IMG/VR virus record: IMGVR_UViG_3300020419_001132
Reading direction: 5' to 3' (one strand)
Source: a virus
Lineage: Duplodnaviria > Caudoviricetes
DNA length: 64,000 bases
The position numbers and the translations under genes were made by a program. How positions within the stretch are numbered: the stretch's first letter is position 1; each line of letters opens with the position of its first letter. Below are positions 7,487 to 64,000 of this stretch, piece after piece. The notes beneath the pieces are model-generated. The model searched no databases. It saw only the letters and a program-made list of their open reading frames with translations, and had not been told where the DNA came from.

Positions 7487-9065
7487 AATAATTGGTACTA
7501 ATGAAGATGGGCATGGGTGGTTCATAATCTTCTGTATCTTCTATGCTTTTAAACGTATTGTATATTCTAGGATCCCAGTCTTGTAATACTCCCATAATTC
7601 TAATAACAAGTAATATAGAAGATACTAGATCGTCAGTTTCTCCTGGTTTTGCTCTGTAGGTTGTTCCTGTTGCTACAAATCCTTTTAATTCAGATATAAG
7701 AGGTCCAGAGTTTACTTCCATTTTATCATTTTCTATCATGGTTTTTAATTTACTACATGCTGATATTTTTGTGCTATGTGTTGTGTTAAACCCTTTTCTA
7801 AACTTTCTTACATGTCCTTTTCTAATAGGTTCGCTTACAAATAAGCCCGGAATATTTTCTTCGCCATAATCACTTATTACTATTAAAGCCGCTTCACCAA
7901 TAGAATTGTTTTCTACACTCCAATAGATACTATTTGAGTTTCCTGTTTCCTTTTCTATAAAGTCACATATATCTTTTAGTATACGTATTTGTCCTGGTAT
8001 TGGTGTTGTATTATGTCGCCACTCTCCTACCTGCTTATATGTAGGAAGTTCAAATATCTGAATTGCGGCGTAATCTCCACCTGTACCCATACTAGGATCT
8101 AGTCCAATACAATACGTTGCATCTTTTTTAATTTTTCTGTACCAGCGAGTTTGCCCCATATTCATTATTACCTTTTTAGGTTCCATTGTCGCTAGTTTTA
8201 TACTGTTAATTAATGTTTCGTCGTATACTAAAAATTCACAACCATATTCCCGTCTAAATCTTTCTTCACCAATACGACCAATCTCTGCCTTCTTCCAATC
8301 CTCATCTCTATCTGGATGCTCGTCCCAGTTACAGGTAAAACTGTGAAATCCGTTTATGCCTACATCTTGTTCGTTGCCGTGTTCGTCGAACTTTTGTTCA
8401 GCTTGTTTCCAAATAGTTGCAAATGTATCTTCGTCTGAATTAGGAGTTGAAGTAATAATTGCACGACCACCTGTTGCTAGTGTAGGTGATATAGAAGTCC
8501 AAAATTCGTCTGCAATACTAGGCGCAACAAATGCAAACTCGTCACAGTATAGTAATGATATGGACATACCACGACCTGTATTTCCTGTAGTTGTTGCACT
8601 TACAATACGTGATCCATTTTCAAACTCAATACTACCTTTGTTATAGTTTACAACACCTGCCCTAATATGATCTGGACACATTTCATAAACATAACGTACA
8701 CGTTGCATAATTTCCTGTGCGCCTGTGTACTTGTGGGCCGCAATTAGTATTGTTTGGTCTGGATTAAACATTGCATACCAAGTTAGATATATTGCCGCAC
8801 AGGTAGTTTTTCCTGTTTGTCTAGGTAGCATGTTAATATTAAATCTATGATTATGGTAACTGGATAGTAGTCTTACTTGATATGTGTAAGGGTCAAATAA
8901 CAATTTTCCTTGTACAGGATGTTGTATAAATGCAAATGCTTTTGAAAAGTGCAAATATCCATCTTTTGTATTCATACACCTTGCTAGTTCATCGAGTTGT
9001 GCTTCTGTAAACGCTTCTCGTTGATTTGCTTTTTTGGTTAATACACCGTCTAAACTTTTGCTCAT
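7485..9065 (-). CDS. terL: terminase large subunit (T4 gp17-like)
   Basis: Walker A PRQTGKTT, Walker B LLYCDEFAFV, TSTPN, nuclease motif GLDPSMG, C-terminal DDLV. Confidence 0.95.
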   Translation of the reverse strand: MSKSLDGVLTKKANQREAFTEAQLDELARCMNTKDGYLHFSKAFAFIQHPVQGKLLFDPYTYQVRLLSSYHNHRFNINMLPRQTGKTTCAAIYLTWYAMFNPDQTILIAAHKYTGAQEIMQRVRYVYEMCPDHIRAGVVNYNKGSIEFENGSRIVSATTTGNTGRGMSISLLYCDEFAFVAPSIADEFWTSISPTLATGGRAIITSTPNSDEDTFATIWKQAEQKFDEHGNEQDVGINGFHSFTCNWDEHPDRDEDWKKAEIGRIGEERFRREYGCEFLVYDETLINSIKLATMEPKKVIMNMGQTRWYRKIKKDATYCIGLDPSMGTGGDYAAIQIFELPTYKQVGEWRHNTTPIPGQIRILKDICDFIEKETGNSNSIYWSVENNSIGEAALIVISDYGEENIPGLFVSEPIRKGHVRKFRKGFNTTHSTKISACSKLKTMIENDKMEVNSGPLISELKGFVATGTTYRAKPGETDDLVSSILLVIRIMGVLQDWDPRIYNTFKSIEDTEDYEPPMPIFISTNY

Positions 9066-9070
9066 GTATA

Positions 9071-9077
9071 TATTTAA
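9071..9077 (-). promoter_or_regulatory. late promoter box TTAAATA
   Basis: TAAATA core 5 nt upstream of the terL ATG. Confidence 0.55.
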
Positions 9078-9102
9078 CCAAAAAACAAAGGGTTATTTAG
9101 AA

Positions 9103-9624
9103 TTACGAGTACTCAACTCCTGAATAAAAAGGAATATTTCTATTCTTTATTATACTAGATCCTGGCAAATATGTCAAGTCCATAATACAAGCACAAGCAA
9201 TAACTTTTCCACCTAACGCTTCAACAATATCTATAGCCGCATTCATTGTTCCGCCAGTAGCCATCAAATCATCTATAATAATTACCTTATCATCTTTAGA
9301 TATTGCATCTGATTTAATTTCTAATGTAGCAGTACTATATTCTAACTGATACTCTTTAGACTCTGTAGGAGGTGGGAGCTTTCCCTTTTTTCTGGCCAAA
9401 ACTAATGGTCCTCTTGTCCTGTGAGCAAATACACTTGCAAAAATAAATCCTCTTGCATCTAAGCCTACAATTTTATCTACTGGACAATATTTTAACAATT
9501 TACTGTAAACAAAATTATTTGCCTCGGCAAAGCCTTCTGGACTTTGGCATAGACTTGCTGTGCATTTAAAGTCTATACCGTCTTTAGGAAAACCTTGATA
9601 ACTTCTTACATAATCTTTTATCAT
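9103..9624 (-). CDS. apt: adenine phosphoribosyltransferase
   Basis: FPKDGIDF, GLDARGFIF, RKKGKLP, LEYSTATLEI, PRPP motif IIDDLMATGGT; TAATG coupling to the upstream gene places the start at 9624. Confidence 0.92.
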   Translation of the reverse strand: MIKDYVRSYQGFPKDGIDFKCTASLCQSPEGFAEANNFVYSKLLKYCPVDKIVGLDARGFIFASVFAHRTRGPLVLARKKGKLPPPTESKEYQLEYSTATLEIKSDAISKDDKVIIIDDLMATGGTMNAAIDIVEALGGKVIACACIMDLTYLPGSSIIKNRNIPFYSGVEYS

Positions 9625-10481
9625 TAATAACTCTGTGCTAAACGCCACATTAGATATTCTTTGCTTTCGATAGGATCATACTTGTCTGGTTGGTCTGTTA
9701 GATTTTTTACTATAGTTCCAGGAGTAGGGTCTACAAAGTGTGGCATGCTGTGTCTAGGAATATGACAATGACTATTTTCAACTCTGTGTCGTGTGCTTTT
9801 AAAATAATCATTTGTCCAACGTTGTAACAAGTCTCCGATATTTACAACAACGCCATTCCATACATAAGGAACAGGATGCCATTTTCCATCTAAATCTTCA
9901 ACTTCTAATCCAGGTACGCTGTCTATCTGCCATAATAGTGTTATAGTTCCGTAATCGCTATGTTCACCAATTCTCATTTGTCTGTCTAATGTAGGCTTCA
10001 TTGCAGGATAATGTATGACTCTAGTTGTATTGTAAGGCTCTATATGTGCATCTACTAGTGTAGTTCCACTGTCTAGTATTGTATCAAATTTTGCCAAAAT
10101 ATCTAGCGTGAGTCTATCTGCAACGTCTATTGACTGCAATGCAGTTTCTTTAAATCCTTTGATGCTACTAGGCCAAAGATCATCAGGCATACGTGTATTG
10201 TTATAGTTAAAACTTTCTTTCATATCTTTAGGAGCAGTTGGATCTACATTTTCCGCACCTACTATACTGTAACCTAAATTGGTCTCTGTTCGGTAACTGT
10301 ATTTGTTTTTAGTTTCTTGATCTTGTTCAAAGAAACTTCTCATCAAGTCCCACCATACTTTCATAGTGTCCTGATCAGCATCTGAAAGTGCATGTTGGAA
10401 TACGGCGAAGCCTACCGTTGTATAGGCTTCGCGTATCTCTTCCAGTACTGTATTACTATTGTAATCAATTACTGGTATCAT
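9624..10481 (-). CDS. isopenicillin N synthase-family Fe(II)/2-oxoglutarate oxygenase
   Basis: IPVID N-terminus, HxD (EHSDYGTITLL), NIGDLLQRWTN, STRHRV, RxS (RHS); start MIPVID at 10481. Confidence 0.88.
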   Translation of the reverse strand: MIPVIDYNSNTVLEEIREAYTTVGFAVFQHALSDADQDTMKVWWDLMRSFFEQDQETKNKYSYRTETNLGYSIVGAENVDPTAPKDMKESFNYNNTRMPDDLWPSSIKGFKETALQSIDVADRLTLDILAKFDTILDSGTTLVDAHIEPYNTTRVIHYPAMKPTLDRQMRIGEHSDYGTITLLWQIDSVPGLEVEDLDGKWHPVPYVWNGVVVNIGDLLQRWTNDYFKSTRHRVENSHCHIPRHSMPHFVDPTPGTIVKNLTDQPDKYDPIESKEYLMWRLAQSY

Positions 10482-10482
10482 T

Positions 10483-11571
10483 TTAGTTTGGCACTTTTGC
10501 GTCGATGCCTTCAACATAGTATGTCATACTATCTAGATGAGCTCTACTAGCAACCTCACCGTCTTTAAGTTGAAGTTTGCCAGTATTATCTTTTAAAGGA
10601 CCTGTAAATGCAAAGTAAGTTCCGGCTTCAATAGCGGCTTTAACTTCTTCTGCTTTTGCTCTTACATCATCTGGCATGTTAGTAAACGGTGCCATTCCTA
10701 CTGCACAACCTGTTGCATCACATTCGCTGATGTCACCAAAGTATGTACCTGTTTCCCAAGTACCATCTAATACTGCACCTACTTTAGCAATATAATAAGG
10801 TGACCAGTTATCAATAGTTGCGGTTAACTGTGCTTTAGGAGCAAATCTGTATTGATCACTTGCTTGACCAAAACCAAATATACCTTGCTGTTGTGCAACC
10901 TGTATTGGAGCAGGCGAATCTGTATGTTGTGCAATTACATCACAACCTTGGCTAAACAACGCCTTGGCGGCGTCTGCTTCTTTACCTGGATCATACCATG
11001 TCATTACCCATACAATATCAATATCAACATCTGGGTTTACACTCTTGGCACCTAAGTAATAAGTGTTAATTTCTCTGATAACTTCAGGAATTGGATATGC
11101 GGCAACATAACAAATTTTGTTAGTCTTGGTCATCATACCTGCAATAACGCCCTGCACATGTCTAGCCTGGTACAGTTTTAAACCGTAATTAGCCATGTTA
11201 TCTGCTGTCTTATAACCAGTTGCATGTTCAAATTTTACATTTGGATATTCTTCTGCCACTTTTAACATACTGTCCATGTAACCAAAAGAAGTTGCAAATA
11301 TAATATCTACACCCTGCATAGCCATTTGACGCATTACACGAGATGCATCTGGACCATACTTTACGTTCTCAACGTATGTAGTTTCTACTCGATCACCAAA
11401 ATGTTTTTCGACATCCTGTCTACCAATGTCGTGTCTATAAGTCCAACCGTGATCACCTGTTGGTCCTACATATATAAAGCCTACTTTGACTTTGTCTTTA
11501 GGTTCATCAGCAAATGCTGATCCAGTAATTGCTAAAAAAATAGCAAATAGAGTTGAATAAAATAATTTCAT
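10483..11571 (-). CDS. BMP-family ABC transporter substrate-binding protein (purine nucleoside/nucleobase type)
   Basis: Signal peptide MKLFYSTLFAIFLAITGSAFA, KVGFIYVGPTGDHGWTYRH, IFATSFGY, WYDPGKE, QHTDS. Confidence 0.9.
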   Translation of the reverse strand: MKLFYSTLFAIFLAITGSAFADEPKDKVKVGFIYVGPTGDHGWTYRHDIGRQDVEKHFGDRVETTYVENVKYGPDASRVMRQMAMQGVDIIFATSFGYMDSMLKVAEEYPNVKFEHATGYKTADNMANYGLKLYQARHVQGVIAGMMTKTNKICYVAAYPIPEVIREINTYYLGAKSVNPDVDIDIVWVMTWYDPGKEADAAKALFSQGCDVIAQHTDSPAPIQVAQQQGIFGFGQASDQYRFAPKAQLTATIDNWSPYYIAKVGAVLDGTWETGTYFGDISECDATGCAVGMAPFTNMPDDVRAKAEEVKAAIEAGTYFAFTGPLKDNTGKLQLKDGEVASRAHLDSMTYYVEGIDAKVPN

Positions 11572-11601
11572 GTTTATCTCCTTCCGAGTTGTTATCTTAT
11601 T

Positions 11602-12063
11602 TTAAACAGGAGCATTCCACCAATGCTCCCAAGGAAAGTGTATCCAGATATCTTCCGTATCCTTAGCACATTCCTGTACATAATAATGAGGCTTGAATCC
11701 ACACTCATTATTCCACCAAAGAGATGCAAACCTAACCTCTACTTTCAGTTCAGTTGAACTCTCCATGTGTTCCTTAATTTTTATAAATGTTTCTCCCGAG
11801 TCGCATATATCATCTACAATCAATACACGTTCGTCGGTTTTTTTAGGTAAGTAATCTTCCCATTCTGGAAAATCTCTAAGGGAAGTTTTAATTGGCTTGA
11901 AAGGTTTCTTAAACCAATGAGACAACATTACTCCGGGGGTCAGTCCTCCCCTAGACAGCCCTACAATAACTTGAGGATCAAACTTGTCTAAAGTTACATG
12001 TCTACATAGAGCATTTACATCTCTACGCATCTCGTCCCATTTGTACCAGTGCTTGTGAGGCAT
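11602..12063 (-). CDS. xanthine/guanine phosphoribosyltransferase-like protein (type I PRTase)
   Basis: VGLSRGGL, PRPP motif LIVDDICDSGET, WIHFPWE C-terminus typical of Gpt-like enzymes. Confidence 0.82.
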   Translation of the reverse strand: MPHKHWYKWDEMRRDVNALCRHVTLDKFDPQVIVGLSRGGLTPGVMLSHWFKKPFKPIKTSLRDFPEWEDYLPKKTDERVLIVDDICDSGETFIKIKEHMESSTELKVEVRFASLWWNNECGFKPHYYVQECAKDTEDIWIHFPWEHWWNAPV

Positions 12064-12090
12064 TTTTACTTTCTGAAGTTGTCTACATGG

Positions 12091-12098
12091 TATTTATA
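12091..12098 (-). promoter_or_regulatory. perfect T4 late promoter TATAAATA upstream of the purine operon
   Basis: TATTTATA on plus is TATAAATA on minus, 27 nt upstream of the ATG at 12063 and downstream of a terminator. Confidence 0.65.
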
Positions 12099-12116
12099 AT
12101 ATTAGGAAATTTTGTC

Positions 12117-12144
12117 AAAAAAATAGGCTCCTTAGGAGCCTATT
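12117..12144 (-). terminator. intrinsic terminator
   Basis: 10-bp stem AATAGGCTCC/GGAGCCTATT followed by a T-run on minus, after the 12163-12543 gene. Confidence 0.8.
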
Positions 12145-12162
12145 ATACTTGGGGGGATATTA

Positions 12163-12543
12163 TTAAGCTACTGTTATGCTTGAAGCCGCTACTACATCTG
12201 TACCTGAAATGTCAATGTCATTAGGTCCAATTGAAGTTGTTGTTGCTCCTGCGTCTTTGCCAATAGTTCTTATTCTAGCTTGTAGTTCACTAGCACTTGA
12301 AATATTTGCATCCATTACTAAATGGATAACACCACTGTTATCATTAACAATAAAATATGCTAATGGATTTAATTCTTTTATAATTGCTTCTGCCGCTTCA
12401 TCTACTGCATCATCTTCTGCACGTAAATCAATTGCTGAGTTTGCGGCATTTTCTACTGTTACTTTGTAGCAATTAGCATTAGGTGAGTACATTGTACCAA
12501 CCGTGTTTGCCATTGATCCTACTCTTCTTGTTACTACTGCCAT
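12163..12543 (-). CDS. hypothetical protein, possibly a small virion protein
   Basis: 126-aa Ala/Asp/Thr-rich ORF with an SD and its own terminator. Confidence 0.7.
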   Translation of the reverse strand: MAVVTRRVGSMANTVGTMYSPNANCYKVTVENAANSAIDLRAEDDAVDEAAEAIIKELNPLAYFIVNDNSGVIHLVMDANISSASELQARIRTIGKDAGATTTSIGPNDIDISGTDVVAASSITVA

Positions 12544-12560
12544 TTTTTATCCCCTTATGT

Positions 12561-12806
12561 TTAAATTCCTAGCTTTGTTTCTTGGTTACTTAGAAATTGA
12601 TCCATTTTATCTAAGTTACCTTGAAATTTGTTTTGTAAACTTTGGAAATTCTTTTCCAAGTTTTTAAGTGCATCTCTAGCACCCATTTTATTTAGTATCT
12701 CTGCGAATCTACGCTTTAATTCTTCATCATTTATTTCTGTAGGCATTTGTATATCACTGCTTTTGCCTGTAAAGGTAGTTAGCTTTTCGATTTCATGTAA
12801 ACGCAT
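12561..12806 (-). CDS. hypothetical protein
   Basis: 81-aa ORF in operon context, starts MRLHEIE. Confidence 0.65.
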   Translation of the reverse strand: MRLHEIEKLTTFTGKSSDIQMPTEINDEELKRRFAEILNKMGARDALKNLEKNFQSLQNKFQGNLDKMDQFLSNQETKLGI

Positions 12807-34974: not shown

Positions 34975-35586
34975 ATGAAGAAAGTTAATATTTTTCCTAC
35001 ACCTATTTATGAATTCCACAATAGTGACATAGATAATGACGATATTGTAGAAAAACTATCTAAGGAAACGCTTAGAGAGCATACTGCACTTAGCTCATTG
35101 GAAGATTTGCACACTAAAGAAGGATATGAGGACTTATTTTTATGGTTTGACGAATGTTTAGACAAAATACACAAAGAAATGCGTTATGACTGTGATAAAA
35201 TAACAATTACTAGTAGTTGGTGTAATAAACAATATGCCCAGTCAGGAATGTATCATTCTCCCCATAAACATACAATGAGCATGTTAAGTGGAGTATACTA
35301 CTGCACTCATGGCGCACCTACATGCTTTCAAGATCCTGTAACACAACGCACAGAAGCACAAATAGAAGTACTACAACACGATTTTACACCTTTTGAATAC
35401 ATAGAAGCTGTGCCAGGAAAACTTATTATCTTTCCAAGTTGGATGTATCATTCTACAACTAGAAGTGTAGAAGAGGTTGATAGATGGAGTATAGCATTTA
35501 ACACATTTCCTGATGGAAAAATAAACTATAATATTGCAAGAGATAGTGTAGTAACACTAAAAGTAGGACAACAAGCTATTAAATGA
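34975..35586 (+). CDS. putative Fe(II)/2OG oxygenase (TIGR02466-like)
   Basis: HSPHKH...LSGVYY...LIIFPSWMYH...RWSIAFN. Confidence 0.75.
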   Translation: MKKVNIFPTPIYEFHNSDIDNDDIVEKLSKETLREHTALSSLEDLHTKEGYEDLFLWFDECLDKIHKEMRYDCDKITITSSWCNKQYAQSGMYHSPHKHTMSMLSGVYYCTHGAPTCFQDPVTQRTEAQIEVLQHDFTPFEYIEAVPGKLIIFPSWMYHSTTRSVEEVDRWSIAFNTFPDGKINYNIARDSVVTLKVGQQAIK

Positions 35587-37055
35587 TTAAAACTATTACT
35601 ATATTAGGTGGAGGTACAGCAGGGCTTATTTCTGCACTAATGTTACGATCTACATTTCACTCTTTAAAAATTACAATAGTTGAATCTAGCGAATATGGTA
35701 TAGTAGGTGTAGGAGAAGGAAGTACCGAGCATTGGGTAGGATTTATGGAACATTGTAATATTAGTGTTCAGGAGTTAATAAAAGAAACAGGTGCTACCTA
35801 CAAGACAGGAATAAATTTTCAAGATTGGAACGGTGTTGGCACATGCTATTGGCATAGTTTAGCTGAAAATGTTTTTGAACAAGATAGTCAAACTGGTGTT
35901 TATGCAAATTTAATAAAACAAATAGCAGACAATAGTGATCCATTAGATTCTGTGTTACCTACAGCATTAAAATCTATGCATACAGAACCTTTCCATAAGA
36001 GCTTTGCCCAATATCATTTTGATACAAACAAGCTAAACACTTTTTTACACAAGTTATGTATGGATAGAAATATTCAAATTGTAGACGACATTGTTGAAAA
36101 TGTTACATTAAGGGACGGTTTTGTTACACATTTGGTAGGTAAAAAGCAATCTTATACTTCAGACTTTTTTATTGATTCAAGCGGATTTAGGAGAGTTATA
36201 GATACTAAGTTACAAGGTACTTGGATAGATTGTAAAAAACAACTTCCTATGAATTCTGCTTATGCGGCGCCTAGTCCTTACGAGGAAAATATTCCGTCAC
36301 ACACGTTAGCAAAAGCATTAAGCTCAGGATGGATGTGGCGTATTCCTACACAGGATCGTTTTGGAAATGGTTATGTATATTGTGATGATTTTATAAGTGA
36401 CGATGACGCTGAAATAGAATTTAGAAATCAGTTTCAACATGACATAAAAATAGCAAAACATATTAAGTTCAATGCAGGATACGTTGATCAGTTTTGGAAT
36501 AAAAATTGTTTAAGTGTAGGACTATCCGGAATGTTTGTAGAGCCTTTAGAAGCAACAAGTATTGGATTTACTATACAACAGATGTTTAGTTTTTGTTCTG
36601 GTATACTTAATTGGAACAATCAAAATCAAATCCCTGCAAAAACATATAACTCCGATTTCAAGAAGGTAGCTGAAAACATTATCGACTTTGTCCAACTACA
36701 CTATATTACAAAAAGGAATGACACAGAGTTTTGGAAGTGGGTAAATACTGGGATACAATTGACAGACTTTAACAAAGAAAATTTAGAAAATTTTAAAAGT
36801 ACGCTACCTGGAAGATATAATTTCAATTATAACTATACCATGTTTAAGGAGTTAAATTGGTTACAAATTATGCACGGACTAGGTATGTTTAACATAGAAA
36901 AAATAAACAAATTATTTTATGACAATCTATATCATACTATTCCTTTTATTAAGCAACATAAAGAGCAACAAGAATATTATAGACGCCAAAACACCTATGT
37001 TCTACATAGGCAGGCCTTAAATACTATTTTAGAAAGAGAAACACATGCATATTAA
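35583..37055 (+). CDS. flavin-dependent (tryptophan-halogenase family) halogenase 1
   Basis: GGGTAG, GVGEGS, catalytic-Lys region ATYKTGI, FFIDSSGF, WMWRIP, FVEPLEAT. Confidence 0.9.
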   Translation: MIKTITILGGGTAGLISALMLRSTFHSLKITIVESSEYGIVGVGEGSTEHWVGFMEHCNISVQELIKETGATYKTGINFQDWNGVGTCYWHSLAENVFEQDSQTGVYANLIKQIADNSDPLDSVLPTALKSMHTEPFHKSFAQYHFDTNKLNTFLHKLCMDRNIQIVDDIVENVTLRDGFVTHLVGKKQSYTSDFFIDSSGFRRVIDTKLQGTWIDCKKQLPMNSAYAAPSPYEENIPSHTLAKALSSGWMWRIPTQDRFGNGYVYCDDFISDDDAEIEFRNQFQHDIKIAKHIKFNAGYVDQFWNKNCLSVGLSGMFVEPLEATSIGFTIQQMFSFCSGILNWNNQNQIPAKTYNSDFKKVAENIIDFVQLHYITKRNDTEFWKWVNTGIQLTDFNKENLENFKSTLPGRYNFNYNYTMFKELNWLQIMHGLGMFNIEKINKLFYDNLYHTIPFIKQHKEQQEYYRRQNTYVLHRQALNTILERETHAY

Positions 37056-38550
37056 TTCGCTTGTAATACTAGGTGGTGGAACAGCAGGCCTTATTTCTGC
37101 ATTGATGGCTAAACACAGCTTTCCACATTTAAAAGTAACTGTAATAGAGTCAAAAGAAATAGGAATAATAGGAGTTGGCGAAGGTTCTACAGAGCAATGG
37201 CAGACATTTATGAATCATATAGATCTAAATGCACAAGATTTGCTTATGAATACTGGCGCTACATACAAGATTGGAATAAAATTTACTAACTGGCATGGAG
37301 ATAATACTGCATACTGGCACAGTTTAGCTGAATGGATGGGTGCCCGAGATAACAGGAATGGAACATACTTTATGTTTCAAAAGTTTATAAGTGAAGGGTA
37401 TGAAAATGAAGTATCTGTCTCTGATACTTATAAGGAAAATAGGCATACTGCTCCTTATGATACAGAAACAAATCAATGGCACTTTGATACAAATAAATTA
37501 AATAGTTATTTTCATCATCTTGCCAAATACAAAGGTGTCATTTTTGAAGATGATACCGTACAAGATGTTATATTAGACAATGAAGGCTTTGTATCTTCTT
37601 TAGTAGGAAAACAAGGACAAAAATATGAAGCAGATTTTTTTATAGACTGTAGCGGTTTTAGAAGAGTAATAGCAAGTAAACTCAATACTAAGTGGATAGA
37701 TTGTAAAAAGCAACTTCCTATGAATAGTGCTATTGCATTTCCTACAGGATATGAAGAGGACATTCCTTCGTATACTGAATCAACTGCACTTAGCAGTGGG
37801 TGGACTTGGCGTATTCCTACTCAGGAACGTTTTGGAAACGGATATGTATACTGCGACGACTTTATTAGTGACGATGATGCATTTAAAGAAGTGTCTATGA
37901 GGCACAAGGAAACTATAGAAATAGGTAAAAAAATTAAATTTGGCGCAGGGTATGTAGATAAGTTTTGGAATAAAAATTGTATATCTATGGGGTTAGCAGG
38001 CATGTTTGTAGAACCTTTAGAGGCAACAAGTATTGGAAGTACAATAGAACAAGGTTTCGGATTTCTTACTAGTATTCCTTATTGGAGTAGGCATGATACT
38101 ATACAAGAAAAACAATATAATAAAGTATTTAAGGAAGTAGCTGAAAATATAATATCTTTTGTACAAATACATTACATTACAGAACGTAGAGATAGCGAAT
38201 TTTGGCGTTGTGTAAACAATGATTTACAACTAACCGAATTCAATAAAGAATACTTAGAGTCATTTAAGCAACACATGCCAAGTTTAAATATGTTTACTAA
38301 TGATTTTATATTGTTTAAATGTGTAAATTGGACACAGGTAATGTGGGGTCTTAGAATGTATAATGATAGGGAACTAATAAAACAAAACTATAACAAACAT
38401 TTTTCTTATATGAATGATTGGTTCGAAAAAGAAAAAGCCTGGAGACCAAAAGTAGCACTAAAGCATCGAGAGTGTCTTGCAAAGATTATGAAAGGCGAAG
38501 ATTGTCAGCACGTAAATTATGATCGTAGCACTGATCCTAATTTTAATTGA
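37045..38550 (+). CDS. flavin-dependent halogenase 2 (tandem paralogue)
   Basis: GGGTAG, GVGEGS, ATYKIGI, FFIDCSGF, WTWRIP, FVEPLEAT. Confidence 0.9.
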   Translation: MHINSLVILGGGTAGLISALMAKHSFPHLKVTVIESKEIGIIGVGEGSTEQWQTFMNHIDLNAQDLLMNTGATYKIGIKFTNWHGDNTAYWHSLAEWMGARDNRNGTYFMFQKFISEGYENEVSVSDTYKENRHTAPYDTETNQWHFDTNKLNSYFHHLAKYKGVIFEDDTVQDVILDNEGFVSSLVGKQGQKYEADFFIDCSGFRRVIASKLNTKWIDCKKQLPMNSAIAFPTGYEEDIPSYTESTALSSGWTWRIPTQERFGNGYVYCDDFISDDDAFKEVSMRHKETIEIGKKIKFGAGYVDKFWNKNCISMGLAGMFVEPLEATSIGSTIEQGFGFLTSIPYWSRHDTIQEKQYNKVFKEVAENIISFVQIHYITERRDSEFWRCVNNDLQLTEFNKEYLESFKQHMPSLNMFTNDFILFKCVNWTQVMWGLRMYNDRELIKQNYNKHFSYMNDWFEKEKAWRPKVALKHRECLAKIMKGEDCQHVNYDRSTDPNFN

Positions 38551-45371: not shown

Positions 45372-46177
45372 TTTTTTCTCCTATTACTACGATACTTATC
45401 GATAACTTTACGCACTCTAACTAAGCGTGACTTTAATGAATCAAACTTGTAAATTACAGAACTTAATGTATAATTAAAAGATCTTTCCATTTTCCTATCT
45501 TCGTCGGTCGCTTCATCACATATAAAATTAAAATGTGAAGAAACATATGCTTTTCTTGGAATAGGAATGTACTGTATTAAAGGGGTTCCTGCTTTAACTA
45601 GTTCTTCTCCATTTAACACATGCCAAAATAGTTGCACATTAAGAACGTGTGCATATCTAGGATCTAGTAATCCTGTTGCTGGTGTGAATCTTTTTTCATT
45701 TGAATAGTGTACAGGAACTTGTAAAAGTAAGTAATCGTCATCTAATTCTACTCTCCACGGTGTGTGTATTTTCACTACTGTTTTTAAACTTTTACTTGGA
45801 TCATCTAGTATTCTTTCTGTTTGATTTTGATCATGAAAGTCTATATATTTGTCTTGTCCATAACCTTGTTCAAGATTAAATCGTTGGGCTTCGCTATATT
45901 TAAAATTTACACCATCACCGTCTGTTGTAATAATAAAATCTGCAGGTGCTGTTAGTACCCAACCTGCATTTAACATTAATTTTATACCGGGACAATTTTT
46001 TGTAGCAATACTACCGTCGTTTGGATGAGGATTACTAGGTAATTTAATCCAAGGACGTTTTACAGATGCTGTCGGAATAATAGGATGTAAGTCTGCAACA
46101 CCTTCTTGCAAACTATAAAATCTAGCTATAGGTTTCTTTTTTTTAAAAAGATTAAACATCATGCTCGTCAACGCCAC
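45368..46177 (-). CDS. hypothetical protein (DUF6065-like beta-rich fold)
   Basis: CPGI...GWVLTAPAD...KIHTPW...GTPLIQYIPI pattern typical of phage oxygenase clusters. Confidence 0.5.
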   Translation of the reverse strand: MALTSMMFNLFKKKKPIARFYSLQEGVADLHPIIPTASVKRPWIKLPSNPHPNDGSIATKNCPGIKLMLNAGWVLTAPADFIITTDGDGVNFKYSEAQRFNLEQGYGQDKYIDFHDQNQTERILDDPSKSLKTVVKIHTPWRVELDDDYLLLQVPVHYSNEKRFTPATGLLDPRYAHVLNVQLFWHVLNGEELVKAGTPLIQYIPIPRKAYVSSHFNFICDEATDEDRKMERSFNYTLSSVIYKFDSLKSRLVRVRKVIDKYRSNRRKK

Positions 46178-47777
46178 CGTAAATATTATCTTTCAAATAT
46201 TCATAATGTGTTGGTAAAGTTTTAATATACTTTATATACTTTTCTTTTTCGTTTAAGAATCTATTTTTTATCTGTTCTAAGTCTCTTCTTCTTTGTTGTT
46301 CAATTTCTGGACTTTTTCCATGTTTAGCAGTAAACATATGTTCACTAGAAACAGGTCTAACACCCATTCCTGCCATTATAAAGTTCATTCCCTGCATCTG
46401 CGGGTTCATAGCTTGATCGCCATAAACTGTACTGTATGCCATTGCATTGTAATCGTCTCTTGGTACATGAATACCGTTAAGCTCTGGGTCATAATCATTT
46501 GTCTGTGTTGCCCAACGCCAATACGGTGTATCTTGTCTCATTGATAGTCCATAATGGTTTGAAACAAATCTAGCAAATTGGTCTATCGATCTGTTTACAG
46601 TAAAATTATAAACTTCTCTCTCAGTTCTTGATACATAACCTTGTCTTTGATTTAATATACCAATTAAAGAAATAATATTTTCGTGTGTTGTTAACAATCC
46701 TGTTGATTCTAAAGGTTCAACAAACCCGTAACTAAGTCCAATACCAAGTACATTGCCCACCCATGCTTTGACTCTCTTTCCATGTTTAATAGGTATGTTA
46801 AAGTAATCTAATTCTTCTACATTAACGTTTTTATGTACTGTTTTAAGGTGTGCTTTAAATTCTTTTAGTGCTACATCCTTGTGTACAAATCTACTACTGT
46901 AAACATATCCAGTTCCAATTCTATTCCATAATGGAATATTCCATACCCAACCGTTTCCTAATGCATGACAATCGGTAACGTTATGCATTTGTTCTTTTCT
47001 ATTACTATAGGGTAATCTTACAGCCCAAGCATAATCATTTGCTAGTATACCTTTGTAAGAATGGAATATAGATCCTTGCCAACCTTCTAACATAAAAGAT
47101 TTAAAACCAGAACAGTCAATAAATAGATCTGCACCTATGTCTTTGTCTCCTTCAATTAACAAAGAGTGTGTAAAACCTTTATCATCGTGTTTTCTAGCTA
47201 CTACATTTGCCTTTATGTGTGTTACTCCTGCAGGAATACATACCTTGTCACGTAAATATATTCCAAATGCTGTTGCGTCCATATGATAGGCTGTATCATA
47301 ATTAAAATTAAAATATCGTAGTTTGTTGTTTTTATTATCAGTTTGTCTATTATGTGTTGCAAGTAAAGTATTACTTAGTGCATGGAATTCAGCAAACGAC
47401 TTAGGACCAAATTCTTCTGGATATAAAGCAGACAATTCAGACCAAGTAATTAAATTATCTCCTCCTGAGTAGCTATAATCATAGTCATCAACAAAAGGAT
47501 ACTCAAAATGTGTTCCATTATTTTCTCTAAAATTTGTAAATCTGATTGAATTCTTATATGTAGCATTACAAGCAGGCATCCAGTCTTCATCTTTAAGACC
47601 TAACAACCTCATATATCTGTTGATATGTCCTAGTGTAGATTCGCCAACGCCTACAGTTTTAATATTGGGTGATTCAACTAGTGTTACTTTAATGTGAGGA
47701 CAAAGTTTTGCAATGGCCGCGGCAGTCATCCAACCGCTGGATCCTCCTCCTACTACGCATACTCTTTTAATTTTCAT
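46152..47777 (-). CDS. flavin-dependent halogenase 3
   Basis: GGGSSG, GVGEST, ATYKNSI, FIDCSGF, WVWNIP, FVEPLESTG; ATG start MKIK at 47777. Confidence 0.92.
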   Translation of the reverse strand: MKIKRVCVVGGGSSGWMTAAAIAKLCPHIKVTLVESPNIKTVGVGESTLGHINRYMRLLGLKDEDWMPACNATYKNSIRFTNFRENNGTHFEYPFVDDYDYSYSGGDNLITWSELSALYPEEFGPKSFAEFHALSNTLLATHNRQTDNKNNKLRYFNFNYDTAYHMDATAFGIYLRDKVCIPAGVTHIKANVVARKHDDKGFTHSLLIEGDKDIGADLFIDCSGFKSFMLEGWQGSIFHSYKGILANDYAWAVRLPYSNRKEQMHNVTDCHALGNGWVWNIPLWNRIGTGYVYSSRFVHKDVALKEFKAHLKTVHKNVNVEELDYFNIPIKHGKRVKAWVGNVLGIGLSYGFVEPLESTGLLTTHENIISLIGILNQRQGYVSRTEREVYNFTVNRSIDQFARFVSNHYGLSMRQDTPYWRWATQTNDYDPELNGIHVPRDDYNAMAYSTVYGDQAMNPQMQGMNFIMAGMGVRPVSSEHMFTAKHGKSPEIEQQRRRDLEQIKNRFLNEKEKYIKYIKTLPTHYEYLKDNIYGGVDEHDV

Positions 47778-47804
47778 ATACAATCATTCCTTTAAATGCT
47801 CGTA

Positions 47805-51993: not shown

Positions 51994-54900
51994 TTATCTT
52001 AACATATAGTTAATTGCTAGTGGTAATCCTACGACCCCACCTTTAAAGTTAACTGTAGCATTGATATTTATCGTAGTACCAGTCACGGTGGTAATCTGAT
52101 TGGTACCAATAAAAATATCTCCAGCTGTTACAGTATTAACGTTTAGTGACGCACCACCGCCACCAATTTGTGCCTCTATGTATGCCTTAACTGCACGTTG
52201 GGTTGGAACAACACTATCTGAATTTGCAGTCATAAACTGATCTGTACTAAATTCTGAAACTGCCGCAGAGTTACCGCCTAGTGTAACCTCTCCCAATGAA
52301 AGTTCTTGTAATCCTGCAATATTAAATGCGTCTGCATTCAATGTAGCAACACCTGTTGCTTGTTCAACGTTAAACAAGTCACCAACTCTAAAGTTACCAT
52401 CTTGGTCAGTTGATGTAAAGAACACCCTACCGCCGTTATTTTGATTAGTTTCTTGAGCTGGTATCGGTGCTATTGCAGGTGTTCCAGGATAATTTGTAGA
52501 TGTAAATCCTCCTGTACCAATATCTAAGAAATCGTGTCCTGTTAAACGTACTTGAGAATATCTAATTCTCATTGTAGTTGGATCACCATGTGGTGGTGAT
52601 AAAGCATGTGTCATGTTAGGCGAAACATTAAGGAATGTTGTATAACTTCCGTCCTGTGTACCAAGGAACGTAACTGTGTTTACTAGTTTGTATACCTGAT
52701 TAGGTATGCTATCAAACACAACATTTGACCCTGGTGTTGGTCTTTCAGTAAGTTGTCTAACTGCAACAAATGTGCCTGTCTGGAAGAAGTCTGCAAAACC
52801 ATTGTTTCCAGTGCTTGACAATTCAGCTGATGCCGCCGCGTATCCACTACCTCTATTAGTAAATGTTGGATTACCTAAACATCCACTTCCTAATCTTACT
52901 GTAGTTTGAACATCAAATACATTGTTAGGATCTGTTATTGTCATTGTAGGTGCACCACTAACATATCCACAACCTGGCTCAACTAATCTTACTTCAAAAA
53001 TCTTTTCACTTGCAACTCCAGCTCTACCAATTGCTGTAACACCTGTTTGCATCCTTGCAATATGTTGTTCTGTTGTACCATTACCTTTGGCCATCCAGTA
53101 ACCTACTTGATTTGGATTACCAAAACAAACTGCCTGGTAACCTGTAATAGCACCATCTGGGTCGCCTATTGCAGTTCTAGTTGTCCAATTTGCTCCGTCT
53201 TCAGTTACTGAAACTGAATTGTATGCTTCTAAATCTGATGCGTTTCCTGGTCCAACTGCCATAAACAGTCCTTGTCCGTACTTAATGTGTGTATACTGTA
53301 CTATACTAGAACCGTCTACGCTTGGAGCTGTAGCATCAATCCAAGTAGCTCCTCTATCCTGACTATATGCCGCTTTGTTGTCGTCACTAGCAATAGTAAT
53401 AAATCTGTTCTTACCAAATGCAACACCCACCCAAGCACTTGTACCTGGTAGTGTAGTAGTTGTCCATGTATCTGCATTATTAAATGCCGCATATGCCGCA
53501 GTAGTTGTTCCGCCTCTAACAGCAACAACTCTTTCTGCCCCATATGCTATGCCTGTATAACCAGTTGTAGCTAATGCATTACTATTCTGTACCCATGTTG
53601 CACCACCGTCACCTGATTCAAAAACATGTCTTGAGCCTTCAAATATTAAGAAGAACTTGTTTTTACCAAAACATATATGTGGTTCTGAATTGTAAGGTCC
53701 GCCTGGAAGATCATTTGCGTTAGTCCAAGTAGTATTGTCTGCACTATACCATACAGGTTTAGTGCTAACACTCGCTTGTGATACAATTACTGTTGAACTT
53801 GTTCTTTCTGTTGACGATCCGTCATTTAATACTCCTGTGCAAAGTTTAACAGATCCTGTAGGTGCTGTTCCTGGTAATGTAGCTGAGGTCCAGTTTGCAC
53901 CAAAGTCTACACTCTTACGAACATCTGCTGATGCACTTGCAACTTCTAGGAATGCTCCTGAAAGGCCTAAGCCATCTGAGTCAACAACAGTTATTGCACC
54001 AGTCGTACTGTTTATACTTGTAACAGTTAGTGTCAAATCATTTGCTGGTGTTGCACCGCCTAAACTTGTTCCTGGTATAACTATTGTGTCGCCCCGTGCA
54101 TATGATGTTCCACCGTTCTGTACTGTTACAACATATTTGCTTGTGTTCCTATAAACTGTAAATCTAGAACTAGTACCAGCTGTTGTTGTCTCTGTACCTT
54201 GAATATTACTATAGATATTTGCTGTTTCACAATACTCCATGTCAGTAGTATTTCTATTTGCACCTAAAACTTGTGCAACTGAGGTATGTGGTGGAGCACT
54301 AAACTCTATGCAAGGTTCTATCAAGTAAATTGATGTTGCATTAGGAGCAACAATAGGTGTTCCTGGATTTAGATGTTCCCAACCAGAGGTTCCGTCATTT
54401 TTAAGTACCGCGGCCAATTTCGCACCACTGTTGTATGTGCTAATTTTACCATACTGTCCTACAGCTTGTCCGCCTGTAATAACAACTCTCATTCCTACAT
54501 ATGCACTATCTGATCTACCATCAGTTGCCGCAATAGTAATTGCAGATGTTGTTCCTGTTTGTGCAGTATTTGTTGTTACAATGTATCCTTTACCGCCTAA
54601 ATCTCCACTGGAATCATCAAGATCTAAAATTCTAATTCTATTAACAGCATTGTCTCTAAACTCGTCTGCTTCAGTTTTTGCTCCAGTACCAGAACCAAAT
54701 ATGCCAATAGCAGATTCTGTGTAATTATTACCTGCATGATCGAATTCAATTGTTATTGGTTGATTACCATCTGTTTCTACTTTTGTTGCAGTAGCTTTGA
54801 ATTGGAATTTGTTATCAACAATTCCTGTTACAGCTATTTCAGTGTTGTCTACACCTTCTGCAACAGATCCAAATGTTCCGTATGAGTTGTTACCATTTGT

Positions 54901-57900
54901 TGCACGTATTCTACCGCCTGCTTCAGCTAAGTAACCAATGTGTGAATAGTAAGTAAACACAGACACAAGCTCAGCTCTACCATTGTTAGTAATCCAAGCA
55001 CCTATACCATCTGATATAACCTGTGTAAAGTCGTTTGACACGATTGAATCGTTACCACCGTTGTGTAATGCACCATCAATCTTTTGACCTATTGCCGCAT
55101 TACCAAATGTAGTTACGTTTTGTACATACGGTGATCTTTCAGTAATCCATACTCTCTTATCATCTGGTCCCCAACCTGGATCAAGTGATGCATAAGCACC
55201 TGCACTAACTCTGCTAGTACCATATGCGTTTGCTTGTAATAAATCACCATTTAAATCTTTAAGTGATTGTAATCTTAATCCTGTTGCATTTCTCAAGTAG
55301 TACATATCTTCTTCTTGAGATCCCATTACAGCATTAATATAATACCTTGCTGAAAATTTTGATCTGTAGTTTGCTGGTAATACAAGTTCAACATCATGTG
55401 AGAAAGAGCATGTATATGGTCTAGTATAATCTTTAGGATAAACTAGATCCCATTTCATTCCATCTACAATTTCTCTAACGTCTCTTGAACATGCAGTTGT
55501 AAATTGATGATCATATATTGGTTGTACAGTACAATTTGATTGGCTTTCAAGAATTGTTTTCTTAGAACCGCCAGGTGTTTCTGAAATTGTAAACTCGTTA
55601 TCATTTACAACTTCTTTAACATAATAAGTTGTTCCTGCAACTAATCCTAAATCTGATACAGAAGTACTAGAGTCTCCTTCGTCTACAAATTTAACTGCAA
55701 GATGTTCTTCTAACCAAGTTGCGTTTTGAGTCATTACAGAGTTTGCAGTAGAACTTACAAAAGTATGGGTATATCTTTGCCCAACTGGTGATGATCCAAC
55801 GTCAACTGTAATTGTATATGTTGTTGCGGCTCTAACTCTTAATAGTGTATCATGGGCCATATCCGAAACTCTTGGATATGGATGATTACTACTATGACCG
55901 TCGAACGAGCAAGTAAACACTAAGCTATCTTTTTTAATTTTTACATGATCGTTAGTTGTAAGGTTGTGTGCTGTAGGAAATGTTAATACCATTATACCTG
56001 TAGTAGCATTGTAAGTTACTGCATTAGGAGTAAAGTTTCTACCAACACTAATCTGTGAACTTGTAACGTTTGTAGATTCAATGGTAGACTTAAAGTGAGT
56101 ATCTACATAACTAGTTGCTTCTTCAACTAAAAACTCTTTGTTAAGTTCGAGCATTCTTTGAGCCGCAAAATTATTAAGTTCTGAAATTTGTTTATTGTTT
56201 GCTTCGTTACCTGCTCCAAAAATTATGTCTGATATCCATTCCCAAGTAAAGTTTATTCCTGAGACCGCAGTTGCATTAAAGTTAACTTTTTTCAGTGCCG
56301 CTTTTCTTTCAAACTCTAAAGCCGCTAATGAAAAATCTTTTTGACTTCCTATAGTTTTTTTAGATGCAGTATTTCGTAGGTATGCATATGCCGCAAACAT
56401 ACTGGCCATATTTGTACCTAACATGAAATCATATCTACACGCATCCACTATGTATTTTAAATCTCTAGTACACTTTGCATGATCGTATACTAGCTTTTGG
56501 TATGTATCACTTATGTATTGTACAACACCTCTAATAGTTTCTTCTAAATCACTTTCTATGTTAGCAAATGCAGTTTGATATTCAGAATCTGCCCAAGTAA
56601 TTGCAGGGTATGTAATAGGTTTAGCTTGTAATACTAATATGCTATCTGCTACACCACTCACAAATGAGTGTGCTGATGTATTTTGAGATTGGCCAACATT
56701 AACAGTAATTGTTGTCGCTGTTTCTGCTGTAATTCTTAATCTTTTCTTATGTGCTGGATCTGTAGATCTTGGATAATCATGATTTGTTGCATTACCGTCC
56801 ATTGCACAAGTAAATCTAATTGCATTATCAGCAATTCTTACTTCGCCGCCTACTTCTAAATTATGAGCACCAATAGTTACAACCATGTCACCTGTGAAGG
56901 GATTATAAGTTGCGCCTGATGGTGTTCTAGTTTGTAAAACATCAAGTGTAAGATCAACACCTGCTTGTACCGAAGCCGCTTCAGTTGCTGTAGCCGCCGC
57001 TCCGTAAGTTACCTGTGTTTCACTGTTTCCTGTTTGTTTTGTGATTGAACTTTCTTGTACAATGTCGTCTAAGATAGACTTCATGTGTGTATATGCACCT
57101 CTTACAACGGCTGTTCCGCTTCCGTCTACACCGTATGTAAGAATTAAGTCGTCATCGATAAAACTATCTGCAATTCTTGACGCCGCTTGATTACCACCAT
57201 ATAGCACGTCATATGCTAACGCATCAATTAGATATTCTGTATCTCTAGTACACTTTGCAACAGTATGAGAATGACTTCCATGATTGACTGCTACCCAAGC
57301 ATTAACGTCTGCTACTATAAATGCTTTATTTCCTATTAACAAGTTTTTAGCATCAACTTTGTCCTGTACAACACCTGCAGGACTCGGTAATGTCAATGCA
57401 TCAGCTACACCGTCTCCTGGTTTAGTATTTGATAATACACCAAGTTCAATAATATTTGTTACTTCGTTAAATGCTGTAGTAATTCTACTTGAAGCATTAC
57501 TTGATCCAGTTGCACTGGATCCATCAGTTGTGACAGAAACTTTTAACAAATCTCTTGCTTTGTTTATTCCAGCAATAGTTTGTGTCATCTGTGTAGATTG
57601 CGTATATTGTGCGTTTCCTCTTTTATAAGAAATACCTGTATATACAGCATTAAAATTTGTACCCATTGCTACGTCATATTTTAAATCTTTAACAATTTTT
57701 CTAATATCTCTTCTGCAATAGTAGCTTTTATGTCTGTATGTTCCGAAGTTTTCACTAACAAAGTCTATAGCATCTTCAGCAATTTCTACAACAGATTCCC
57801 TAAGACTGTTAGAAGCATCTATTAACGCAGAATTTACTCCTGATGTATCAGGATATGTAATACTTGCGGCTGTTGGACCGTTATTAATAATATCAATTAT

Positions 57901-63700: not shown

Positions 63701-64000
63701 TAGAATCAATTCCTAATGCTACTGATCCATAATTTCCGTATGAGTTGTTACCGTTAGTAGCTCTTATCTTTCCGCCTGCTTCAGCTAAGTACCCCATGTG
63801 TGCATAATACGTAAACACAGAAACAAGTTCTGCTCTACCATTGTTAGTTATATGAGCTCCTAGGCCATCTGATATAACCTGTGTAAAGTCGTTTGATACC
63901 ATTGACTTGTTACCACCGTTATGCAAAGCACCGTCAATTTTTTGTCCTGTACATGCTGTACCGATTGTTGTTACACCCTGTATATAGGGTGATCTTGTAG
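60738..64000 (-). CDS. second giant fibre/baseplate protein, paralogue of 51994-60690; C-terminal part only
   Basis: The frame is open from the window end (TRSPYIQGVTTIGTACTGQKIDGALHNGG...); shares NDFTQVISDG, RATNGNNSYG and TSTDQDGNFR with the 2898-aa protein. Confidence 0.8.
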   Translation of the reverse strand, partial: TRSPYIQGVTTIGTACTGQKIDGALHNGGNKSMVSNDFTQVISDGLGAHITNNGRAELVSVFTYYAHMGYLAEAGGKIRATNGNNSYGNYGSVALGIDSTETPKTATVDNRNNEAEVAFAFAGEVTDKILAFEYRHCGENYTSASINVVGSGNFVNTSFDDIRDDSLFEARLIQADDSANIGGANYTNVGNNAQTGNTTSITLASNDSAVTADYIGQLIVLTSGVGTGQYGYIQAYNDSTKVAQIYKHTDGTAGWDHIIPGFEISASLQTNTQYRIQPRITVSEPPFTVNTRTLPNSMPTSPKEWVDAAWGETREQYDNNVMSTGTGTTIDTTPAPAVIRIIKTGATYTAVLQSTGIGYAVGDTTTIAGTALGGTSPTNDCIIRVASVSDDSTNSIVTVTVQGSGFAGRWLAVAEGNYSAYSDDGTSWSEIFTASTQTWKTIAHGGTTFVAISNTVTDVINYSRTGKTWAVTTLPSSAPLKDIHYANGQFIIVCEDDNRVFYSANGTTWAQTSIPASTSDDLSSSSKQWQGVSYGYGKWVALSGSDRAIATSSDGITWTVTEDKLPTPGGAYDWCNLTFGNGRFVAVSKNTGQAIYCIGDPVTETWQTSNMPNLDDSTHMNWNKVRYGNGVFFAVCDTGNRIIAGDATTGPTTIAASSPDGYTWTKRDLTFSNKFSSCAYGKYNKNWLVLAKGGNTALAVGQGAKAKVIANISTGVIGFLKIWDPGSGYTSAPTLTIFDNKGTTDAQVQMRIGDGVLAQPTFINRGIGYRTSTTTVTLTGDGYADKIPSNSTDLTVVGLSGAYPGPGAQISITGVMNTDTTEDLTDLRAFTAVKVTELGDDGSGNGTKRVLFRISPKLENSDNLAHGTAVSIRELYSQCRISGHDLLDIGSGNFTQTNYPELYVAGNVYDVYPENETYEDDGGRVFYTSTDQDGNFRAGELFSVEQGTGIVTISADFFDLDGLSELALGGVRLGGSGTVVREFSTDPLFIEDSNNIVPTQKAVVTFLATRLSEGGSEIETNDLTAGLVKIGGENDIIQHTGDGGLVSGTVPGTAFEIQFPKTTNFAGQYAGVTGMPLAMRLFLKED

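Follow-up and report, generated by a model that had tools for sequence, protein, structure and literature searches.

Introduction

Phage genes that boost the nutrient uptake of the host are known for phosphate, in the form of PstS: lytic marine cyanophages encode this periplasmic binding protein without a permease or an ATPase, and presumably boost uptake of the limiting nutrient through the Pst transporter of the host. A comparable arrangement is described here for a 64,000-nucleotide stretch of viral DNA (Duplodnaviria; Caudoviricetes; IMG/VR record IMGVR_UViG_3300020419_001132; the whole stretch is called the window), whose minus strand carries a cassette of four genes for a phosphoribosyltransferase (PRTase), a BMP-family binding protein, a 2-oxoglutarate (2OG) oxygenase and the PRTase Apt, followed by the gene for the large terminase subunit (terL). 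The cassette differs from phage PstS in that its binding protein belongs to the BMP (cluster B) family and would handle purine bases, instead of being a PstS-family protein for phosphate. The binding protein is also locked to a cytoplasmic oxygenase, and often to PRTases, as PstS is not, and its docking to a host permease is presumed.

Among described proteins, the closest to the binding protein are the basic membrane lipoprotein 3S99 of Brucella melitensis, in which adenine has been modelled, and AtzT of Pseudomonas sp. ADP, for which the reported ligands are guanine (Kd 0.11 uM) and adenine (2.5 uM) as free bases, with no binding of GTP (PMC6834077). The oxygenase stands closest to the fungal thymine-7-hydroxylase (T7H; PDB 5C3P-5C3S), a salvage enzyme working on a free nucleobase, for which the roles of individual residues in base positioning and in the lid have been described (PMC4787775). 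No earlier description of the cassette was found in the literature searched, the coverage of which was incomplete, so this is no proof of novelty.

We propose that the four genes form an auxiliary metabolic cassette that raises the purine nucleotides of the infected cell by scavenging free purine bases, a reading that we consider probable.

Results

Gene content of the cassette and proposed route

The order PRTase-BMP-oxygenase-Apt, and then terL, was established from the list of open reading frames (ORFs) and by reading of the sequence. The genes are the following:

11602-12063, minus strand: PRTase, 153 aa, Pfam PF00156
10483-11571, minus strand: BMP binding protein, 362 aa, Pfam PF02608
9624-10481, minus strand: 2OG oxygenase, 285 aa, start probably ATG 10481, PF14226 plus PF03171
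9103-9624, minus strand: Apt, 173 aa, start probably ATG 9624, NF002636
7485-9065, minus strand: terL, large terminase subunit, flanking landmark; best cultured relatives PA5oct-like, 53% identity

Between the BMP stop codon (TAA, 10485-10483) and the oxygenase ATG (10481-10479) there is a single base, the end of the oxygenase gene overlaps the beginning of Apt in the sequence TAATG (9626-9622), and the PRTase-BMP spacer is 30 nt long with a GGAG ribosome-binding site. The tight packing described in a first-pass annotation of this DNA was therefore confirmed by direct reading of the sequence, and the four family names agreed across Pfam, PHROGs and NCBIfam. That annotation had also taken the genes for a coherent import-and-salvage set, a general reading that is upheld by the families, the conserved residues and the context.

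In the route that we propose, the binding protein would be exported to the periplasm and would capture a purine base there. Adenine or something closely related to it is the most likely ligand, since the phage pocket is identical to that of the adenine-containing 3S99. The base would then be handed to a resident BMP-type ATP-binding cassette (ABC) permease of the host, as phage PstS does with the host phosphate transporter. In the cytoplasm, Apt and the Gpt-class PRTase would join the base to phosphoribosyl pyrophosphate (PRPP), yielding nucleoside monophosphates for phage DNA and RNA synthesis. The T7H-like dioxygenase, as the constant partner of the binding protein, would most likely oxidise the imported base or a derivative of it. 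Our preferred guess is that it makes an unsalvageable base, such as a methylated purine, into a PRTase substrate, as T7H does for thymine in fungal pyrimidine salvage.

The binding protein

The BMP protein matched PF02608 with 170.8 bits (cut-off 24.1; E 4.5e-50). Its best solved relatives were 3S99 (E 2.5e-120) and AtzT (1.4e-96), both aligned over the full length, and the nucleoside binders of the family scored far weaker. The AtzT pocket was mapped onto the alignment, taking into account the aromatic sandwich, the Ser/Phe backbone, the Glu and the pair at AtzT positions 218 and 220. The pocket of the phage protein (W43, S95, F96, E163, W192, H216 and D218) was identical to the pattern of 3S99 (W, S-F, E, W, H, D), whereas that of AtzT differs at three positions (Y, N, N). 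All seven residues were invariant in 80 viral and 9 close cellular homologues. The alignments thus place the protein in the purine-base-binding subgroup represented by 3S99 and AtzT, not among the nucleoside binders. Of the purine nucleosides and bases named as BMP ligands in the first-pass annotation, the pocket and the scores support the bases and not the nucleosides.

Outside the first shell of the pocket, residue 167 is Glu throughout the phage/SAR116 clade, Gly in typical cellular relatives, including 3S99, and Asn in AtzT. The translation begins with a hydrophobic signal peptide, MKLFYSTLFAIFLAITGSAFA, in which AFA is followed by a cleavage site before DE and no lipobox Cys is present, and the protein is predicted to be secreted. 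Relative to 3S99 and AtzT, the cassette protein is therefore distinguished by an ordinary signal peptide without lipobox, by Glu at 167, by being phage-encoded and an orphan, and by a ligand that is presumed.

No permease or ATPase gene was present in the cassette. A PF02653 permease was likewise absent from an independent 117-kb IMG/VR record (G001) that carries the cassette at 99% identity, and from a 316-kb, 91%-complete relative (G004) that carries the binding-protein/oxygenase pair. A SAR116 single-amplified genome (SAG) and an alphaproteobacterial metagenome-assembled genome (MAG), both with an orphan pair, each have a canonical Bmp gene with two permeases elsewhere, and the Planktomarina orthologue (69% identity) adjoins two permeases, an ABC ATPase and XdhC.

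The oxygenase

The closest solved relative of the oxygenase was the T7H of Neurospora crassa (5C3P), with an E value of 4e-29 and 32% identity. T7H was also the top match in a Foldseek search (template-modelling score, TM, 0.88) with an AlphaFold2 model of high confidence (predicted local distance difference test score, pLDDT, 95.5). Among 80 homologues, H174, D176, H232, R243, F249 and Y158 were invariant and S245 nearly so; this set includes the metal triad and the RxS/Tyr residues that bind 2OG. By alignment, the phage enzyme also retains R190, the F292/Y217 pair that sandwiches the base, N87 and the lid residues Y324 and R328 of T7H. Sequence and model together indicate an Fe(II)/2OG dioxygenase of a T7H-like clade. 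The protein has no signal peptide, so it would be cytoplasmic.

The first-pass annotation had called this enzyme IPNS-like, which did not hold up. The match with isopenicillin N synthase (IPNS; E 3e-5) covered only residues 172-270, in the C-terminal third, and around 40 other family members scored better. The likeness is that of a common superfamily, with DIOX_N plus 2OG-FeII_Oxy domains, and the name came from automatic annotation and has no functional meaning.

In an exhaustive search, the oxygenase fell into one tight cluster (at least 63% identity), after which identity dropped to 42% or less. This drop suggests that the group is a distinct, uncharacterised subfamily. A further difference from T7H lies in the partners, as the phage enzyme is linked with a purine-binding protein and not with genes of pyrimidine salvage, and the cassette showed no gene for isoorotate decarboxylase.

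The phosphoribosyltransferases

The assignment of Apt is solid at the sequence level, in agreement with the first-pass annotation. The protein scored 169 bits with NF002636 (cut-off 125) and contains the acidic PRPP-binding motif followed by a TGGT loop, VIIIDDLMATGGT, like the bacterial enzymes, although it remained under the cut-offs of four other Apt equivalog models. It was 86-90% identical to the Apt of four jumbo-phage contigs (L004, L173, L174 and L187).

The 153-aa enzyme matched PF00156 (8e-15), carries the PRPP motif VLIVDDICDSGET, and resembles XGPRT-class enzymes in size and in its PRT fold. Its best solved relatives were archaeal purine PRTases, namely 1VDM of P. horikoshii (1e-11) and GpT-1/2 of Sulfolobus, whereas E. 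coli XGPRT matched weakly. At class level, then, the sequence points to a type I purine PRTase of the Gpt/XGPRT class. The earlier label "Gpt-like" can be kept in that sense but not as an identification of Gpt, as the enzyme falls under the cut-off of the XPRT equivalog model.

Linkage of the genes and paralogous cassettes

In 77 of 80 viral loci, the oxygenase gene lay directly 3' of the binding-protein gene, and the pair was also present in SAR116 and in two alphaproteobacterial MAGs. At least 175 IMG/VR contigs carried the binding protein, nearly always with the oxygenase, and more than 1000 protein clusters of the oxygenase were found in marine metagenomes. The view that such a set is unusual for a phage is consequently right for cultured phages, among which it is rare, but not for phages overall. 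A PRTase was located within 6 kb in 29 of 59 loci with a pair of the window's type (type A), and was adjacent in 20.

Relatives of the 153-aa PRTase (63-84% identity) were detected in 79 viral loci, usually followed by a second type of binding protein and then by a second type of oxygenase (type B), which were 34-39% and 38-44% identical, respectively, to those of the window. In the type-B binding protein, H216 is replaced by T, E167 by N and Q215 by T. Elsewhere, the 153-aa PRTase normally stands beside the type-B pair or a full ABC importer. The cassette of the window thus appears to be a mosaic, in which a type-B-associated PRTase precedes a type-A pair plus Apt. Type-B cassettes (PRTase, BMP, oxygenase) were located at these positions and in about 20 further loci:

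L258:5001-7419
L273:5001-7457
L291:5001-7781

Three of the five nearest outgroup oxygenases are also encoded 3' of a Bmp gene, one of them in a full ABC operon with a CN-hydrolase. The other type-A carriers were mostly uncultured marine T4-like phages, with a DNA polymerase 45-50% identical to that of cyanomyophages. In these contigs about 3 kb separate the cassette from the DNA polymerase gene downstream of it, and genes for a phage lysozyme, Hsp20 and GTP cyclohydrolase were found nearby.

A HAD-superfamily gene (201 aa) similar to class-B acid phosphatases was located immediately upstream of the binding-protein gene, by about 650 nt, in 27 loci (L068:17-622 and 26 T4-like ones); it may encode a nucleotidase of the same scavenging module. 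In three loci, a complete ABC importer (NMT1/THI5-like binding protein, ATPase and BPD_transp_1 permease) was accompanied by an arylsulfotransferase-like beta-propeller protein (L254:5001-8924; L001:9173-12631; L065:9105-12531). The importer is placed directly upstream of terL, behind a 93%-identical PRTase, in L254, and between the BMP protein and the oxygenase in L001 and L065.

Reality of the block and site of insertion

By sequence, the phage is classed as a PA5oct-like marine jumbo phage: its terminase is of the T4 type, and the best cultured relatives were Pseudomonas jumbo phages of the PA5oct-like kind (53% identity), with other jumbo phages next. The first-pass annotation had considered that assembly checks might reveal a chimeric host insertion. 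The check was run and the chimera was not borne out, as positions 8900-12700 (3.8 kb, both flanks included) matched G001 at 99% identity, and 72-98% of the sampled words of the stretch were present in 14 marine metagenome runs from at least 9 studies. The G+C content of the cassette (0.376; window 0.361) equals that of the flanks. Comparison of the cassette at the DNA level with 50,697 phage records gave no match, and only protein-level searches were informative.

Among the 80 closest IMG/VR terL loci (77-84% identity), only L004, L173, L174 and L187 carried Oxy-Apt before terL, sharing the Oxy-Apt-terL junction with the window, and the binding protein was also present wherever their contigs extended far enough. 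The remaining loci, about 75 close relatives, kept the flanking synteny and lacked the cassette. The two edges of the insertion are the following:

12122-12144, minus strand: intrinsic-terminator-like hairpin of 10 pairs, 5 of them G-C, then a T-run; ends the upstream gene
9066-9085, minus strand: conserved terL leader (TTTTTTGGTTAAATATATAC, then ATG); downstream insertion edge; the leader recurs in relatives

For the leader comparison, 19 terL loci were sampled. In most of the relatives without the cassette, the terminator hairpin and its T-run were fused directly to the leader GGTTAAATA-N5-ATG of terL, whereas in the window the terminator and T-run are followed by the cassette and then by the identical leader. 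From this order, the cassette is an accessory insert, and it sits exactly where the T-tract of the terminator and the leader of terL would otherwise join; this junction is a hot spot. At the equivalent site, L254 (terL 77% and PRTase 93% identical) carries a PRTase and then genes for a binding protein of the NMT1/THI5 type, an ABC ATPase, a permease and a protein resembling arylsulfotransferases.

The leader itself, TTTTTTTGGTTAAATA-N5-ATG (window 9066-9085; most of the 19 loci, for example L161:2165-2191), lies directly 3' of the terminator without an obvious Shine-Dalgarno sequence, and the terL mRNA may be leaderless or use an unusual initiation.

The cassette had been placed between head-protein genes and terL. 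This was correct on the terL side, where UvsX, SSB and a virion protein follow. On the other side lie two small ORFs without annotation, a 1142-aa protein that has a peptidoglycan-binding domain, a virion protein, and the tube and sheath of the tail, with baseplate and fibre genes beyond, and no head assignment was obtained. Such neighbours define a morphogenesis and packaging region in which the upstream genes are not demonstrably head genes.

Two further observations concern the rest of the window. Three paralogous tryptophan-halogenase-like genes (flavin-dependent halogenase, phrog_2928) lie amid the baseplate/tail-fibre genes, at 35583-37055, 37045-38550 and 46152-47783. A 2898-aa ORF extends over 51994-60690 on the minus strand, and the next ORF (60738-63926) has at least 1062 aa.

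Transcription signals

The terminator reported upstream of the cassette was found again at 12144-12122, with a similar copy elsewhere in G001, and from its sequence it is expected to isolate the cassette from upstream transcription. Two sequences follow it:

12113-12118, minus strand: perfect TTGACA (-35-like), immediately 3' of the terminator T-run
12091-12098, minus strand: TATAAATA word, located 28 nt before the start codon of the PRTase; sole copy in the window

The first-pass annotation had taken the TATAAATA box for a perfect late promoter. The box is present, at 12098-12091, but its proposed role was unsupported. A single copy was counted in 64 kb, which hold mostly structural genes, where chance predicts 10.3, so its presence is not above chance; there were 2 copies in the 117 kb of G001. 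It does not recur before other late genes and is absent from all other intergenic regions of the window (13 regions listed). [quoted passage not shown] The time at which the cassette is expressed is inferred.

The TTGACA site is a candidate for a sigma-70-type promoter of poor geometry, the best -10-like words after it being TATAAA (14-nt spacer) and TAAATA (16-nt spacer); a sigma-70 promoter scan reported no site upstream of the PRTase. No terminator separates Apt from terL, so that read-through into terL is possible. A perfect sigma-70 consensus, TTGACA-17-TATAAT (12/12), was detected inside the 3' end of Apt (window 9149-9177, minus strand), about 80 nt before terL. It was rejected as a part of the system, as it is not conserved in four Apt-carrying relatives, and may be due to chance or very young.

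When contigs from four metatranscriptome runs were compared with the stretch, the matches were mostly conserved pieces of 40-50 nt from the binding-protein genes of other organisms. Near-identical pieces from RNA libraries covered parts of the oxygenase (9664-9913), the binding protein (10499-10753) and the upstream ORF (12150-12700); these were sparse, and DNA carry-over is possible.

A hairpin ahead of type-A binding-protein genes

A conserved hairpin of 27-31 nt, GGGUG-AARCAU(U0-6)AG(G/U)UUARAGNA-CACCC, was observed 20-35 nt before the start of type-A binding-protein genes in at least 19 distinct phage and SAR116 loci. It was absent from the window itself. Representative copies are the following:

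L004:7948-7978, hairpin
L002:2319-2349, hairpin
L008:5840-5868, hairpin
L079:7944-7970, hairpin
L080:7943-7969, hairpin
L083:3940-3968, hairpin (SAR116)
L001:9117-9147, second copy of the hairpin
L065:9056-9084, second copy of the hairpin

The second copy precedes the inserted NMT1-type ABC importer. The loop was nearly invariant, one stem pair covaried (GC x16, AU x2, CG x1), and 97.9% of cells were paired, against 37-57% in slid controls. Wide and narrow searches against Rfam gave no match, and single-sequence folding gave no energy signal (z -0.7 to +1.0), so the motif rests on its conservation and the one covarying pair. We regard it as a candidate riboswitch or other regulatory RNA of nucleobase-transport genes.

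Origin and hosts

The nearest cellular relatives of the binding protein were alphaproteobacterial (SAR116, Planktomarina and two alphaproteobacterial MAGs), the closest copies being 69-74% identical. A tree of the binding protein placed 81 viral sequences in a fully supported clade with SAR116 SAGs, Planktomarina, the two MAGs and L086, separate from the ordinary alpha- and gammaproteobacterial Bmp proteins (48-57% identity). L086, binned as a Legionellales MAG, is probably a phage contig, judging from its BMP-Oxy-Apt-PRT gene content.

The cellular members of the clade were nested inside the viral diversity, so the tree settles neither the direction nor the number of transfers. The first-pass annotation had suggested acquisition from an alphaproteobacterial purine locus. 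An alphaproteobacterial ancestry of the binding protein is plausible from its relatives, but a single capture from one bacterial purine locus is unlikely, since the cassette is a mosaic whose PRTase usually has other partners.

In several T4-like contigs, an alphaproteobacterial two-piece tmRNA gene (RF01849, 70-137 bits) was located immediately upstream of the cassette, which suggests alphaproteobacterial hosts for those phages:

L008:5527-5832, two-piece tmRNA gene
L080:7618-7937, two-piece tmRNA gene
L035:1358-1704, two-piece tmRNA gene
L013:674-982, two-piece tmRNA gene
L002:1906-2310, two-piece tmRNA gene

In a SAR116 single-cell genome, an orphan binding-protein/oxygenase/PRTase set was found about 7 kb from a nucleotide-modification-associated Nmad3 gene (L081:428-1228). 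It lies in a stretch of small ORFs beside the core genes yidC, engB, argB and dapD, and this stretch may be an island of phage origin.

Discussion

The scavenging of free purine bases to raise the nucleotide supply of the infected cell is the reading that we favour, and several results weigh against it. A site among tail and packaging genes is unusual for nucleotide supply. Half of the related loci have no PRTase nearby, so that PRTase salvage is not an invariant part and the core function could be other than nucleotide supply. With the XPRT equivalog model of NCBIfam, the 153-aa PRTase scored 43.8 bits against a cut-off of 138. As residue 167 is Glu in the phage protein and Gly in 3S99, the ligand may differ from plain adenine. 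In the oxygenase, E122 and N294 of T7H, which both hold thymine via water, are replaced by N and D, and several of the substrate residues of T7H are common to family members with other substrates. Finally, a compatible host permease is assumed.

In a sharper version of the same explanation, the oxygenase would be the reason for the cassette to exist. The ligand would be a purine derivative out of reach of ordinary salvage, for example an N-methylated purine from RNA or DNA turnover, an N6-substituted adenine or a 7-deazapurine (such as preQ0 or preQ1). The oxygenase would dealkylate the base or mend it in another way, after which Apt or the Gpt-class PRTase could act on it. What the binding protein is invariably paired with is indeed the oxygenase and not a PRTase, and the nearest characterised relative of that oxygenase, T7H, oxidises the methyl group on free thymine (PMC4787775). 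Each type of binding protein has its own co-diverged oxygenase, and the changes at residue 167 in the phage/SAR116 clade and at 216, 215 and 167 in type B suggest tuned specificities. However, a protein that was crystallised with plain adenine has the same first shell of the pocket, and the fold and the aromatic-sandwich residues are common to many family members with unrelated substrates. This version is possible, but we hold it to be clearly less probable than the general one.

We regard as slightly more speculative still the extension of this idea to a salvage route not recognised so far. Binding protein, T7H-like dioxygenase and PRTase would constitute three steps that make otherwise unusable purines available, such as N-methylated ones from marine dissolved organic matter. 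The route would have two or more paralogous versions that differ in pocket and PRTase, would move as a module among marine T4-like phages, PA5oct-like jumbo phages and SAR116, and in many copies may be controlled by the hairpin RNA in the 5' untranslated region.

A role in purine catabolism or nitrogen scavenging appears less likely than these, and rather improbable in itself. The oxygenase would hydroxylate an imported purine as a molybdenum-free analogue of xanthine dehydrogenase, like the fungal XanA, providing a nitrogen source or adjusting 2-oxoglutarate/succinate, with the PRTases being incidental. Such a role would agree with the absence of a PRTase from half of the related loci, with the XdhC next to the Planktomarina orthologue, and with a distant oxygenase relative whose operon includes a CN-hydrolase and lies near AtzE/G/H-like genes of ring catabolism. 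However, no uricase, allantoinase, deaminase or other catabolic gene belongs to the cassette of the window, where both PRTases are packed closely with the pair or coupled to it in translation; in about 20 other loci, Apt adjoins it as well. XanA is a member of another 2OG-oxygenase subfamily, and a slow release of nitrogen would be of little gain to a lytic phage.

The lack of a phage-encoded permease for the orphan binding protein might also indicate a function outside transport. The secreted protein would then serve as a decoy, as a sensor of a signal or in superinfection exclusion; it might, for instance, occupy a host ABC transporter that other phages use, or sequester a purine signal. This is very unlikely in view of the ligand pocket, strictly conserved in 80 viral homologues, of the constant linkage to a cytoplasmic small-molecule oxygenase and the frequent one to PRTases, and of the related phage loci in which complete ABC importers stand beside the same PRTase and point to real import. 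An assembly artefact or misjoined host DNA, for which only the cellular type of the genes and the 69-74% identity of the closest cellular copies could be invoked, is refuted for practical purposes by the 99% match in the 117-kb record, the 14 metagenome runs, the Oxy-Apt-terL junction of four contigs, the G+C content and the clean junctions.

Picocyanobacteria and heterotrophs exchange free purines as a significant currency. A purine-base counterpart of PstS, as proposed here, would add nucleobases to the nutrients that are directly contested by ocean viruses. The pair of binding protein and oxygenase is very common in marine metagenomes, near-identical phage copies come from at least 9 studies, and in related loci there are complete ABC importers, placed within morphogenesis regions of phages, as well as a candidate regulatory RNA. 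The constant linkage with a T7H-like enzyme points to a chemistry of free purines that lies outside current salvage maps.

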